DNA of 64,000 nt from Escherichia coli (GTDB taxonomy: Bacteria; Pseudomonadota; Gammaproteobacteria; Enterobacterales; Enterobacteriaceae), in the NCBI RefSeq assembly GCF_045037415.1, contig NZ_CP173438.1. One strand, 5' to 3'. Shown in pieces: positions 2,374-28,856 of this stretch. The translations under genes were made by a program, and so were the position numbers. The notes beneath the pieces are model-generated. The model was not told the DNA's origin and ran no database searches. It saw nothing but the letters and a program-made list of their open reading frames with translations. The first letter of the stretch is position 1; every line of letters begins with the position of its first letter.

Positions 2374-3405
2374 ATGATCGCTGAACTGTTTACAAATAAT
2401 GCGCTTAATCTGGTCATTATTTTCGGTAGCTGCGCAGCATTGATTCTGATGAGCTTTTGGTTTCGCCGTGGAAATCGTAAAAGAAAAGGATTTTTATTCC
2501 ATGCGGTGCAATTTTTAATCTACACCATAATTATTAGTGCTGTTGGTAGCATCATTAACTATGTTATAGAAAACTATAAACTCAAATTTATCACCCCAGG
2601 CGTTATCGATTTTATCTGTACGTCCCTGATTGCGGTTATTCTGACGATTAAGCTATTTCTGCTGATTAATCAGTTTGAAAAACAGCAGATTAAAAAAGGT
2701 CGCGATATCACCAGTGCGCGGATCATGTCGCGCATTATCAAAATCACCATTATTGTGGTGCTTGTTCTGCTTTATGGCGAACATTTCGGCATGAGCCTTT
2801 CTGGCTTGTTGACCTTTGGTGGTATTGGTGGTCTGGCTGTCGGTATGGCCGGTAAAGATATTCTGAGTAACTTCTTTTCCGGGATTATGCTCTATTTCGA
2901 CCGTCCTTTCAGTATTGGCGACTGGATCCGTTCACCGGACAGAAATATCGAAGGTACAGTAGCGGAAATTGGCTGGCGAATTACCAAAATTAAGACCTTT
3001 GATAATCGTCCATTGTACGTACCGAACTCGCTGTTTTCGTCGATCAGCGTAGAAAATCCTGGACGAATGACCAACCGGCGCATTACCACGACCATTGGTT
3101 TACGTTATGAGGATGCGGCAAAAGTGGGCGTTATTGTCGAAGCCGTACGTGAGATGCTGAAAAATCACCCGGCCATCGACCAGCGACAAACCTTACTGGT
3201 TTATTTCAACCAGTTTGCTGATTCGTCATTAAATATTATGGTTTATTGCTTTACCAAAACCACGGTATGGGCTGAATGGCTTGCTGCACAGCAAGACGTT
3301 TATTTGAAGATTATCGATATTGTACAGTCACACGGCGCGGACTTTGCCTTCCCCAGCCAGACGCTGTATATGGATAACATTACACCGGCGGACCAGGGTC
3401 GCTAA
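2374..3405 (+). CDS. ynaI: MscS-family mechanosensitive channel YnaI
   Basis: 343-aa ORF; N-terminal TM helices plus MscS-like C-terminal domain; synteny. Confidence 0.9.
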
Positions 3406-3415
3406 ATCAGACATC

Positions 3416-3445
3416 ACTGGCGTTATCCACAAGGGTAACGCCAGT
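3416..3445. terminator. Bidirectional hairpin between convergent ynaI and mppA
   Basis: ACTGGCGTTA / TAACGCCAGT 10-bp inverted repeat with 10-nt loop. Confidence 0.5.
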
Positions 3446-3455
3446 TCTCATCACA

Positions 3456-5069
3456 TCAATGCTTCACAATATACATAGTCCGACTGTACGCCACATCTTC
3501 AGGGTTGTTAATGGGATAACCTTTCAGCCACGGCTTGATTAATCGTCCATTGGTATATTGATAAATTGGTGCAATCGGTGCTTGCTCCATGAGGATTTTT
3601 TCTGCCGCGTTGTAATCGGCATTACGCGCTTTAACGGTATTTTCCGTCGATGCCTGGGCCAGAACTTTGTCATATGCCGGATTGTTAAAGCGTGAAATAT
3701 TCCCGGAATGCGTTGACGTTAATAATGTCAGGAAAGTGGAGGGTTCATTATAATCCCCTACCCACGAGGCGCGGATAACATCAAAATTGCCGGTATTACG
3801 GCTATCGATATAGGTTTTCCATTCCTGGTTTTGCAATTTAACATCTACGCCCAGGTTCTTTTTCCACATCGATGCTACAGCAATCGCAATTTTTTGATGG
3901 TTTTCTGAAGTGTTATACAAAAGCGTCAGCTTCAGCGGTTTTTGCGGACCATAACCAGCGGCGCTCAACAAAGTTTTTGCCTGCGCATTCAGTTCTTCCT
4001 GACTCATTTGTTCAAACGGCGAAGGTTCCGGCGTAAATCCCGCGGTAACATCTGGTGTAAAATGCCACGCTGGCTTTTCGCCCGTCCCCAACACTTTTTC
4101 GGTCATCAGGCGGCGATCTATCGTCATACTTAATGCCAGGCGAACGCGCTGATCTGCCGTCGGCCCTTTTTGCGTGTTAAACGCATAATAATAGGTCCCG
4201 AGCTGCGGCGGCGTATAAACCTGCCCCGGAATATCCTTCAACAGCTTCTGATACATATTTTTCGGGAAGGATTCGGTGATATCAATATCCCCCGCGAGAT
4301 AACGCTTAGTGGCTGCGGATTCCTGATTAATTGGCAGGAAGGTCACTTTTTGCAGTACCGTTTTGGCGTTATCCCAATAATGGGTATTCGGCACTACGAC
4401 CAGTTTTTCATTGACTACGCGCTCTTTAAGAACATAAGCGCCATTGCCGATCAGATTTCCGGGTTTCGTCCACTCTTTACTGCTTTCTACGTTGGCTTTT
4501 TGCACCGGGAAGAAGGCAAAGTTAGCGGTTAAATTCACAAACCACGGCAACGGTTTATCAAGCTGGATTTTCAAAGTATGGGCATCAACTGCGGTAACGC
4601 CAAGCTGGTCAGGCGTGGCTTTACCATCAATAATCGCCTGTGCGTTGTTGATTCCCGCCAGCGCGGCAAACCATGCAAATGGCGAAAGCGTTTTCGGGTC
4701 CACCAGACGTTGCCAGCTGTAGACAAAATCTTGCGCCGTTACCGGTGTGCCATCCGCCCATTTTGCGTTATCGCGCAGGGTAAAAGTCCAGATACGGTTG
4801 TCATTACTTTTCCACTGAGTCGCAACGCCGGGGACAATCTCCCCTTTCTCGTTCTGATTCACCAGTCCTTCAAACAGATCGCGAATGACCTGAATCTCCG
4901 GCAGGCCCACGGCTTTAGCGGGATCCAGCGACGCTGGCTCATCTTTAATGTGGCGCACCAGCTCCTGCTTCTCTGCCAGTACTGTGCCGCTCGGAACTTC
5001 AGCAGCATACGAAAGAGAAATGCTGCTGACCAACAGCGCACAACACGTGACTGAAACAGAGTGCTTCAT
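3456..5069 (-). CDS. mppA: Periplasmic murein tripeptide-binding protein MppA (OppA paralog)
   Basis: ORF 3456..5090; start placed at MKHSVSVTCCALL (signal peptide) giving 537 aa; SBP family 5. Confidence 0.9.
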   Translation of the reverse strand: MKHSVSVTCCALLVSSISLSYAAEVPSGTVLAEKQELVRHIKDEPASLDPAKAVGLPEIQVIRDLFEGLVNQNEKGEIVPGVATQWKSNDNRIWTFTLRDNAKWADGTPVTAQDFVYSWQRLVDPKTLSPFAWFAALAGINNAQAIIDGKATPDQLGVTAVDAHTLKIQLDKPLPWFVNLTANFAFFPVQKANVESSKEWTKPGNLIGNGAYVLKERVVNEKLVVVPNTHYWDNAKTVLQKVTFLPINQESAATKRYLAGDIDITESFPKNMYQKLLKDIPGQVYTPPQLGTYYYAFNTQKGPTADQRVRLALSMTIDRRLMTEKVLGTGEKPAWHFTPDVTAGFTPEPSPFEQMSQEELNAQAKTLLSAAGYGPQKPLKLTLLYNTSENHQKIAIAVASMWKKNLGVDVKLQNQEWKTYIDSRNTGNFDVIRASWVGDYNEPSTFLTLLTSTHSGNISRFNNPAYDKVLAQASTENTVKARNADYNAAEKILMEQAPIAPIYQYTNGRLIKPWLKGYPINNPEDVAYSRTMYIVKH

Positions 5070-5161: not shown

Positions 5162-5405
5162 GAAGCATCAAATGTTTTAAGTATCAATATATCAAATCAG
5201 ATTTAGTGTAAATAATAGTCTCCAAAATGCGGTAAAGCACATAGAACTCCGAACACTACGTTCGGGCTTCGCACATTCAAACCCGTTTTCGGTATCATAA
5301 TCAGCATCTGTCGCCATTGTGCGAAGAATAAAAAATAACCAAAACGTTGAAAGGAACTGAGAATACGTTAAGAGAAGAATTAAATTAATGTATCAGCAAG
5401 TAGTG

Positions 5406-10699: not shown

Positions 10700-12241
10700 T
10701 TACTCTTCGTTCTTCTTCTGACTCAGACCATATTCCCGCAACTTATTGGCAATCGCGGTATGTGAAACGCCGAGACGTTTTGCCAGTTTGCGCGTGCTGG
10801 GATAATTGCGATAAAGCTGGGTTAATACCGAGCGTTCAAAACGGCTGGTGATTTCGTCCAGCGAACCTTCCATCGCATCTTCGCCCACGGCTACCGTTGC
10901 GGCGTCATAATCCGGCAACAAAATATCCTGTGGACGCAGCTCATAACCGTCCAGTTGTGTCAGTGCACGATAGATAGCGTTCTTTAACTGCCGCACATTT
11001 CCCGGCCACGCATAACGCGTAAGTACAGTATTCAGATCAGCGGCCAGTTTCGGACGCGGCACGCCCTGCTCGTCGGCAAAGCGGGCGACGAACAGCTCGG
11101 TTAACGGCATGATGTCCTGCGGACAGTCACGTAGCGGCGGCAGATTGAGCGTCAACACGTTCAGACGATAATAGAGATCTTCACGGAACACGCCTTTTTG
11201 CACCAGTTCGACCAGATTCTTCTGCGTAGCGCAAATCACCCGCACATCGACATGCACCTCATGGTCTTCGCCAACCCGACGGAAGGTGCCATCATTAAGG
11301 AAACGCAGTAATTTCGCCTGCATCCGTGGTGACATCTCACCTATTTCATCCAACAGCACCGAACCACCGTTCGCCTGCTCAAAGAACCCTTTCTTCCCTT
11401 CCGGAGCATGACCAAACAGTTCACTCTCGACCGCATCTTCCGGTATAGACGCACAGTTCAGCGCCAGGTAAGGTTTGCTCGCTCTGGGGCTTGCCTGATG
11501 ACAGGCGTAGGCAAAGAGATCTTTTCCGGTGCCGGTATCACCCGTAATCAGCAGTGGCGCGCTTAGCATCGCCAGTTTCTGCGCCTGTTCGACAACATGC
11601 TTCATTTTCGGGCTGACAGCGACAATTTGACTGAAGGCGCTGACATCCTGGGCGGCGACATTTTGCAACTGACGGCCCATACGAATCGTTGATCGCAGCA
11701 TCACCACCGCACCGGTCAGGACGTGTTGATCATTTTCATCCTGAAGATAAACAGGCGTAATCTCCATCAGGAAATTCTGCCCATTAATAACGACATGCTC
11801 GTTATGCGAATCTTGCGGTTCGCTTTCCAGCCAGCGTAAAAAATTAAAGCCGTTAATCAATTGCGCGGCGGTATGGTTGCGCAGGCGATCCAATTTTTGC
11901 CCAAAAAGCTGACAGCTCGCCGGGTTCGCCATATCCACTTTGCTTTTCATATCGACAGAGAGCACAGGTTCAGGCAACGCCTCCAGTAACGCGCTCAACG
12001 CCAGATGCTCACGTTCGGAAGGCATCCACGGGACAGTACGCACATCGGTAACACCTGCAATACGGCGTATTTCGGCCATCAGACTGCTGAAACTCTCAAA
12101 CTCCAGTTCAGCAAAATTGAGGTAGATTCGCCCAATGGGGTCAATCTCAATACCGCGTAAATCAATGCCTCTTAGCACGAGTAGATCGAGTAATTCGCGG
12201 GTCAGACCGAGTCGGTCTTCACAAAAGACTTCCAGACGCAT
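10700..12241 (-). CDS. tyrR: TyrR, sigma54-type AAA+ transcriptional regulator of aromatic amino acid genes
   Basis: ORF 10700..12268; start placed at MRLEVFCEDR giving 513 aa; Walker A GDTGTGKD and C-terminal HTH. Confidence 0.95.
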   Translation of the reverse strand: MRLEVFCEDRLGLTRELLDLLVLRGIDLRGIEIDPIGRIYLNFAELEFESFSSLMAEIRRIAGVTDVRTVPWMPSEREHLALSALLEALPEPVLSVDMKSKVDMANPASCQLFGQKLDRLRNHTAAQLINGFNFLRWLESEPQDSHNEHVVINGQNFLMEITPVYLQDENDQHVLTGAVVMLRSTIRMGRQLQNVAAQDVSAFSQIVAVSPKMKHVVEQAQKLAMLSAPLLITGDTGTGKDLFAYACHQASPRASKPYLALNCASIPEDAVESELFGHAPEGKKGFFEQANGGSVLLDEIGEMSPRMQAKLLRFLNDGTFRRVGEDHEVHVDVRVICATQKNLVELVQKGVFREDLYYRLNVLTLNLPPLRDCPQDIMPLTELFVARFADEQGVPRPKLAADLNTVLTRYAWPGNVRQLKNAIYRALTQLDGYELRPQDILLPDYDAATVAVGEDAMEGSLDEITSRFERSVLTQLYRNYPSTRKLAKRLGVSHTAIANKLREYGLSQKKNEE

Positions 12242-12311
12242 GGGAACCTTCACCTGAAAAAAGAACAATTAATATGATGATATGACACTATTTGGATAGC
12301 AGGAAGGTTTC

Positions 12312-12329
12312 TGTCAACAATCATTGACA
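12312..12329. promoter_or_regulatory. Candidate TyrR box in the tyrR upstream region
   Basis: Perfect inverted repeat TGTCAA-N6-TTGACA, one mismatch per arm from the TGTAAA-N6-TTTACA consensus; about 70-90 bp upstream of the tyrR start. Confidence 0.45.
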
Positions 12330-12388
12330 CAAAGACGGAAAAACGGGCACTTCGGCGTAAAGATATCCGGTCAGCACCCGATATTGCA

Positions 12389-13450
12389 TTATTTTTCGCT
12401 GGGCGTTTTGCCTTTTTGCAGAGTTTCTTTCACCTGACCGATAAGCTGACGACGGAAATCCCCGAGGCGTGGCTTGTCATCGTCAATCCACGGCAGCGGG
12501 CGGCAAAGCTCCATAGCTTTAATCCCGAGTCGTGCCGTCAGAAGTCCAGCACCAATCCCCTGAGCTGCCCGGGTAGACAAACGCGCAGCGAGATCTTGCG
12601 ACATCCAGTCCATCCCCACTTCGCGCACCAGTTCGCTGGCTCCGGCGAAAGCGATATTCAGCAATACCAGCTTAAACAGGCGCAAACGGCTGTAATATCC
12701 CAGTTCAATGCCATACAGCGTGGCGATGCGATTAATCAAACGCAGATTGCGCCAGGCGATAAACGCCATATCCACCAGCGCCAGTGGGCTAACGGCAATC
12801 ATTAACGTTGATTCCGCCGCTGAGCGGCTGATTTCGCGCCGCGCCTGGGCATCTAAAACTGGCTGGACCAGGTGAGCATACAAACTGACCACTTCACGAT
12901 CGTTCTGCGTTTCATGGATTGAGGCATACCAGCGCTGCAGCGCCGGATGTGACTGATCGATGCCCGCCTGCTGCGCCAGTTTTTCGCAGAATGCACGGCC
13001 TTTACCCGTGCCGTGACTGTGCAACAAATCGCGCGCTTCATCGCGTTCATGGGCGCGCTGTCGCAAGCGCCATAAGCGCCGCCACTCTGTTACCACAGAA
13101 CCTACGCCAGCGCCGATAATCAATGCCCCAGCGGCACATCCACCCAGCGCCACCCAGTCCTGGGTTTGCCAGGCGTTCATTGTCCACTGCACGCCCTGCC
13201 CGACAACGCTTGCGCCAAACAGAGCCAGCCCGCCCATCACCATTTTGCGCCACAGGCTGCGTTTCGGACGTAACGCTGCGTCCATCACCGCTTCAACTTG
13301 CCCCTCTTCTTCCTGTGCTTCGTCGAGCGTGGCCGGGGCAAAATTTTGCGCCTGATTTTCGTCAAAGGTCTGCTGCGCCCTGAATTTTGGATTCTGATCG
13401 ACCTCCAGTGGACCGTCGAAATCAATACGTGGTTTTAACGGTTCGGTCAT
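12389..13450 (-). CDS. ycjF: Inner-membrane protein YcjF (DUF697)
   Basis: 353-aa ORF; start overlaps the ycjX stop by 4 bp. Confidence 0.85.
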
Positions 13451-28712: not shown

Positions 28713-28856
28713 GAAGCGAGAGACTACTCCGCATAAAATAAACTGTCAATTGAGCTCAAGGGGTTTAGTCACGCAGGAAATCTTTTTTTACCTGGGAAAA
28801 AGCGTATTTGTGAGCTGACGCAAATAATCTATGGGGATGTAAATAAGGTGTGACAG

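Follow-up and report, generated by a model that had tools for sequence, protein, structure and literature searches.

The TyrR boxes of Escherichia coli follow the consensus TGTAAA-N6-TTTACA, count as strong when at least 10 of the 12 arm positions match it, and contain a G and a C, 14 bp apart, that are essential (PMC4374768). Such boxes, each an 18-bp dyad with the G-N14-C arrangement, are found at aroF-tyrA, aroLM, tyrP, aroP, mtr, aroG, tyrB and folA, and RegulonDB 8.5 holds 19 TyrR sites and eight operons with multiple sites (PMC4280137). At activated promoters (mtr, tyrP with phenylalanine, Enterobacter cloacae ipdC) the strong box lies upstream of the -35 element, and at ipdC the distance from box centre to -35 centre is 33 bp, equal to three helical turns, which places both on the same DNA face (PMC4374768). 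The regulator gene belongs to its own regulon. tyrR is negatively controlled by TyrR and is among the most conserved members of the TyrR regulon across gammaproteobacterial lineages (PMC5343134), genomic SELEX targets of TyrR include TyrR itself (PMC5791370), and PMC4374768, citing Camakaris 1982 and Cornish 1986, has TyrR repressing tyrR from a position upstream of the -35 element. That tyrR is autoregulated by way of a TyrR box upstream of the gene has been textbook knowledge for E. coli since the 1980s, and the site described below has little import beyond annotation. Camakaris and Pittard, in 1982, reportedly found the repression of tyrR to be weak and largely cofactor-independent.

Here we describe the tyrR control region in a window of 64,000 nt, the whole stretch of E. 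coli chromosome that was analysed, which carries a perfect palindrome upstream of tyrR. We read this palindrome, with a probability of about 0.92, as a strong TyrR box and the operator for negative autoregulation of tyrR. Like the regulon boxes named above, it is an 18-bp dyad with G-N14-C that lies in the promoter of a gene regulated by TyrR, and the effect of TyrR there is repression. As in the autoregulation of trpR by TrpR, a palindromic operator stands in the regulator's own promoter and is conserved as a core member of the regulon; trpR-type operators overlap the core promoter, whereas the tyrR box abuts it from upstream. The tyrP, aroF, aroL and tyrB boxes lie over the -35 element, the -10 element or the start (PMC4374768), whereas the tyrR box lies upstream of the -35, as at the activated promoters. 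Unlike the usual pairs of boxes it is apparently a single strong box with no partner at 23 bp, and no other box recovered in this analysis has C at position 4, which at tyrR is paired with a symmetric G15.

Results

The palindrome consists of two 6-nt arms, TGTCAA (12312..12317) and TTGACA (12324..12329), around the spacer CAATCA (12318..12323), and if one mismatch is allowed the dyad reaches 10-nt arms (12308..12317 and 12324..12333). It lies in the 147-nt spacer between ycjF (12389..13450, minus strand) and tyrR (10700..12241, minus strand, 513 aa), 71-88 nt upstream of the tyrR ATG, and reads TGTCAATGATTGTTGACA in the orientation of tyrR. The gene coordinates come from the RefSeq annotation of an identical strain; in this annotation ycjX lies upstream of ycjF and tpx beyond tyrR. 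The TyrR encoded by the adjoining gene is intact, with ACT, PAS and sigma54-interaction AAA+ domains and a C-terminal HTH_50 DNA-binding domain. The 3-kb region around the site has matches in 5,415 of 5,426 complete E. coli genomes, several of them at 100%, and the ycjF-tyrR spacer is 100% identical to that of K-12 MG1655, so that the K-12 literature applies to it directly. The pattern TGTCAA-N6-TTGACA occurs once in the 64-kb window when both strands are searched, compared with 0.01 expected (one match in 100 shuffles).

An earlier, sequence-only reading of the window had reported a perfect palindrome at 12312..12329 in the ycjF-tyrR spacer and had seen in it the architecture of a TyrR box with one change per arm, and both descriptions hold: the palindrome is exact, perfect and single in 64 kb, and its 10 of 12 consensus matches together with the retained G-N14-C (positions 2 and 17) amount to the published criterion for a strong box. 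The two departures from the consensus are symmetric (A4 to C and T15 to G). The site shows the features of the strong class, namely the arm matches, G-N14-C, the cognate regulator beside it and conservation at orthologous promoters. When the same box rule was used to search the K-12 upstream regions of aroF, aroL, tyrP, aroP, mtr, tyrB and aroG, it recovered the known boxes of aroF, aroL, tyrP, aroP, mtr and aroG, including TGTAAAACCCCGTTTACA at aroG (12/12), TGTAAATTTATCTATACA and TGTAAATAAAAATGTACG at aroF and TGTACATTTATATTTACA at tyrP; the spacing in K-12 is 23 bp for adjacent TyrR boxes and 52-53 bp for distal ones.

Consensus resemblance by itself is not significant for the tyrR site, since TyrR-consensus sites occur in the window at chance level, with five at two or fewer mismatches against 2.75 expected and 23 at three or fewer against 27.6 expected. 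A symmetrised matrix was also built from 12 K-12 TyrR boxes, with the tyrR site left out. It scored the site at 11.2 bits, within the training range of 7.8-21.7 bits, while every other box that matches the consensus in 10 or more of its 12 positions scored higher (13.1-21.7 bits); the site ranked 8th of 63,983 window positions, with seven outscoring it. Judged on its letters alone, the site is therefore suggestive as a TyrR box, and what sets it apart is its perfect dyad, its location and its conservation. The deciding evidence is comparative and positional.

Two further sites in the window match 10 of 12 positions and carry G-N14-C: TGTAAATAAGGTGTGACA at 28838..28855, in the pspE-ycjM intergenic region beside the pspE terminator, and TGTAAATAATAGTCTCCA at 5207..5224. 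Their matrix scores (12.2 and 13.2 bits, respectively) are both above that of the tyrR box, and the window holds no more sites of this kind than chance would give.

To compare orthologous promoters, a genome collection was scanned with the TyrR protein, which gave 80 loci, each from a different species of Enterobacteriaceae and with a TyrR 84-99% identical to the query; three genera, Cronobacter, Siccibacter and Entomohabitans, were added by exact-protein look-up, and 84 sequences were analysed. The homology search with the TyrR protein gave no relative below 77% identity and only one below 82%, and the comparison covers Enterobacteriaceae. A TGT-N12-ACA box was present 84-99 nt upstream of tyrR at every locus of the 84 species, and TGT and ACA ends were kept in all of them. 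Across the 84 sequences the 12 arm positions were conserved at 99.7% (permutation p<1e-5), the N6 spacer of the box at 89.9%, the -10 hexamer at 95.4%, the -35-like hexamer at 86.7% and the remaining promoter positions at 62.3%. Only three arm substitutions were found in total, all of them G to A or C at box position 15 (-45) in three Buttiauxella-type loci, and the distal arm (12324..12329) was without change in the 84 species.

Within Escherichia the N6 spacer of the box varies: K-12, the window and one Escherichia sp. (L002) have TGATTG, other Escherichia (L003-L006) have TGTTTG or TCTTTG, and the arms are unchanged; most other genera have TATTTG or TAATTG.

The same data bear on whether the palindrome could be the operator of some other dimeric regulator, or a chance palindrome of no function. 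The chance frequency of TyrR-consensus matches with up to two mismatches in the window would be in keeping with either, but across the 84 species the arms are conserved almost perfectly while the flanks vary, which excludes a chance palindrome. As for another regulator, the arm spacing, the TGT and ACA ends and G-N14-C all fit TyrR, and the gene that the site serves, tyrR, is documented as a target of TyrR (PMC5343134, PMC4374768). We consider this pair of explanations extremely unlikely. Two specific candidates were rejected on inspection of the sequence: a CRP-like site has the wrong arm spacing here (TGTCA-N8-TGACA) and the critical G is absent, and a LexA site is ruled out by its arm spacing.

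In K-12 a transcription start of tyrR has been mapped to 1384715 of NC_000913.2 on the basis of 4 reads, which gives a 5' UTR of 29 nt (Kim et al. 2012, PMC3415461 Table S1), and the -50..+1 sequence of this start (TTGTTGACAGAAACCTTCCTGCTATCCAAATAGTGTCATATCATCATATTA) is identical to the window. Placed on the window, the start (A, +1) is at 12270 on the minus strand, as given by 4 reads from one dataset. The -10 hexamer TATCAT (12277..12282, minus strand, -12..-7) is assigned from its conservation and its distance to the mapped start, and the weak -35-like hexamer TTCCTG (12300..12305, minus strand, -35..-30), of which TTC is conserved, from its spacing of 17 bp upstream of the -10. The box (12312..12329, minus strand) covers -59..-42 with its centre at -50.5; in the orientation of tyrR the proximal arm is TTGACA (12312..12317, -47..-42) and the distal arm TGTCAA (12324..12329, -59..-54). 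Together with the upstream terminator candidate described below, this gives a clean coordinate map of operator, weak -35, -10 and start. The Mendoza-Vargas 2009 supplement lists no tyrR promoter start; among the Ettwiller 2016 coordinates searched none falls in this range, and among the Kim et al. 2012 entries searched (PMC3415461) there was no Klebsiella tyrR start. The K-12 dataset of Kim et al. 2012 (PMC3415461) also contains a minor second tyrR-associated start at 1384333 (2 reads), which corresponds to about 12652 of the window (minus strand), 411 nt upstream of the ATG and inside the ycjF coding sequence.

The distance from the end of the box to the conserved -10 hexamer is exactly 29 nt in 84 of 84 species. 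The hexamer itself is TATCAT or TATTAT in 83 species and TATGAT in one. Between the -10 and the ATG, by contrast, there are anywhere from 31 to 46 nt in the 81 species measured, and this variation next to a fixed spacing between box and -10 indicates that the box and the core promoter form one unit of fixed geometry. The comparative data thus define an operator whose 29-bp spacing to the -10 is fixed across Enterobacteriaceae, and a -35 look-alike that is not the -35 of the promoter.

With respect to the promoter, the sequence-only reading had made two proposals, that the position would suit tyrR autoregulation and that the site could serve as promoter element and operator at once, each arm being a consensus -35 hexamer. 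The first is supported by the box at -59..-42, its conservation in 84 species and the literature (PMC4374768, PMC5343134). The second is not supported: both arms are a perfect TTGACA, each on its own strand, but the tyrR-proximal arm is 29 bp away from the -10 of the promoter. A -35 element is expected to have a -10 at 16-18 bp and a start about 7 nt beyond, and at the arms only the hexamer was found.

If the tyrR-proximal arm were also a functional -35, TyrR and sigma70 would compete for the same six bases. Besides the perfect hexamers, such dual use would be in line with the poor -35 (TTCCTG) at the mapped promoter and with C4 and G15, which create TTGACA and are almost invariant in the 84 species, while all other E. 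coli boxes with at least 10 of 12 matches have A at position 4; moreover, at a depth of 4 reads a second start could be overlooked. The spacing between this arm and the conserved -10, however, is constant at 29 bp in the 84 species, and neither arm is followed at 16-18 bp by an acceptable or conserved -10. In E. coli the proximal arm has CCAAAT, CAAATA and AAATAG at these distances, of which the 17- and 18-bp ones match in 2 of 6 positions, and other genera do not conserve these hexamers. A promoter scan joined no -10 to either arm, Kim et al. 2012 (PMC3415461) recorded no start about 12 nt upstream of the mapped one, 12270 being the sole start in the spacer, and variation in the arms is confined to the G of TTGACA, a key base of the -35. 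PMC4374768 also puts the operator upstream of the -35. We therefore regard dual use as very unlikely, and the arm as -35 hexamer of the tyrR promoter is not supported, with room left for a minor cryptic promoter because the start-site evidence is shallow.

The non-consensus C4/G15 pair that makes the TTGACA look-alikes is strictly conserved. A second constraint beyond TyrR binding, through docking of sigma70 or RNA polymerase or through use of an upstream half-site, seems unlikely to us, and it can be put in several ways. Sigma70 region 4 or RNA polymerase could use the upstream TTGACA as a decoy or recruitment site for which TyrR competes; a cryptic second promoter could be active without TyrR; or the autoregulatory complex could also use a conserved TTTACG half-site located 44 bp upstream, in the loop of the probable ycjF terminator. 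Tuning of affinity for homeostatic autoregulation is a more ordinary account of the conservation of this pair.

Just after the ycjF stop there is a conserved hairpin (12345..12379, minus strand; fold -13.9 kcal/mol) followed by a T run (TTTTT, 12339..12343). Across 51 species its stem showed pairing in 75.7% of cells, whereas slid controls gave 37-53%; the covariation score was 0.418, and that of the controls did not exceed 0.20. These figures refer to a hand-specified stem, and RNAalifold gave no consensus structure for the upstream element. We infer that the hairpin and T run (12339..12379) are probably the ycjF terminator, which probably separates transcription of ycjXF from the tyrR promoter.

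This hairpin also matters for the idea that the palindrome is an RNA element, that is, a hairpin acting as terminator or processing signal in transcripts that read through from ycjF. The palindrome can be folded in the tyrR orientation (-8.5 kcal/mol, z = -2.5). Its stem, however, has 6 bp with two G-C pairs, it is followed by GAAACC and no U run, and so it does not have the G+C-rich stem-loop and U run of an intrinsic terminator. A terminator scan gave no hit there and Rfam no match, the arms are invariant where a conserved stem would covary, and the hairpin and T run just upstream (12339..12379) make a better candidate, with a stem that covaries. Furthermore, the tyrR mRNA does not contain the palindrome because its start lies downstream of it. 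The chance that the palindrome is an RNA element appears vanishingly small.

The 19-nt loop of the upstream hairpin bears an almost invariant CTTTACG, which is unusual in a terminator loop. It is part of a candidate weak second TyrR box, TGACCGGATATCTTTACG (12356..12373, minus strand), which matches 7 of 12 positions, keeps G-N14-C and has its centre 44 bp upstream of that of the strong box; TTTAC[GA] is present at this fixed 44-bp offset in 53 of 81 species. In view of a low matrix score (4.8 bits, rank 75 among the window positions) and an atypical spacing (44 bp vs 23 or 52-53 bp at other E. coli TyrR operators), we treat TGACCGGATATCTTTACG as a candidate only, and its role as a weak second box is speculative. 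On a count of sites per operon, the RegulonDB totals would presumably fit two sites at tyrR. No credible weak box was found at the usual 23-bp spacing from the strong box. An overlapping candidate at +10 with 6 of 12 matches was discarded, as it could not be bound at the same time as the strong box.

The -44 element is absent from seven loci of an Enterobacter clade (L029, L031, L034, L036, L047, L048 and L050), where the strong box is preceded, at a distance of 30 bp, by another TyrR-like 18-mer with 7-8 of 12 matches, for example AGTGAGGTTTTGTTTACT. An auxiliary site may have turned over in these species, or the match may be due to chance. In Siccibacter colletis (L085, 1..400) tyrR is not preceded by ycjF, and a DUF943 gene on the opposite strand takes its place. 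The 5' arm of the hairpin has decayed in this species, but an upstream TGACCG-N6-TTTACG element persists together with the T run and the strong box, an arrangement which hints that the element travels with tyrR rather than with ycjF.

Discussion

The box upstream of tyrR is a real, functional and well-conserved autoregulatory TyrR box that was already known. This reading is supported by the sequence criteria, the conservation in 84 species and the literature taken together. The 18-mer TGTCAATGATTGTTGACA is reportedly the tyrR box of the Pittard reviews, and we equate it with the published operator on the strength of its position and of secondary citations. A full-text literature search for the 18-mer in either orientation gave no match, and the supplement of PMC5343134 gives the regulon without site sequences.

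With its centre at -50.5 the box is clear of the core promoter hexamers, and the mechanism of repression is for this reason not self-evident. A TyrR dimer would grip both arms through its C-terminal helix-turn-helix domains, with the G and C 14 bp apart as the essential contacts. Bound at -59..-42, it would abut the -35 hexamer with a gap of 6 bp and would occupy DNA needed by the alpha C-terminal domains and by sigma region 4, most likely hindering RNA polymerase. The distance from box centre to -35 centre is 18 bp (about 1.7 turns) at tyrR, as compared to 33 bp at ipdC, so that the distance would be too short and the DNA face wrong for TyrR to touch the alpha C-terminal domain, and this geometry favours interference over activation. 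Given its weak -35, of which only TTC is kept, the promoter should be sensitive to lost upstream contacts, which fits a modest homeostatic repression. The expected outcome would be a modest, steady repression that holds the level of TyrR constant.

Two variants of the neighbourhood were also observed. In one NCBI genome an 807-aa gene call (protein P0001) shares 99% identity with TyrR and in addition contains a DUF697 (YcjF) domain; this apparent ycjF-tyrR fusion across the spacer could be a frameshift or an annotation artefact. In E. coli CUVET17-1136 (L096, locus 2983..4311), the IS4-like element ISVsa5 is inserted in the 5' part of ycjF, and the spacer and the TyrR box are intact.
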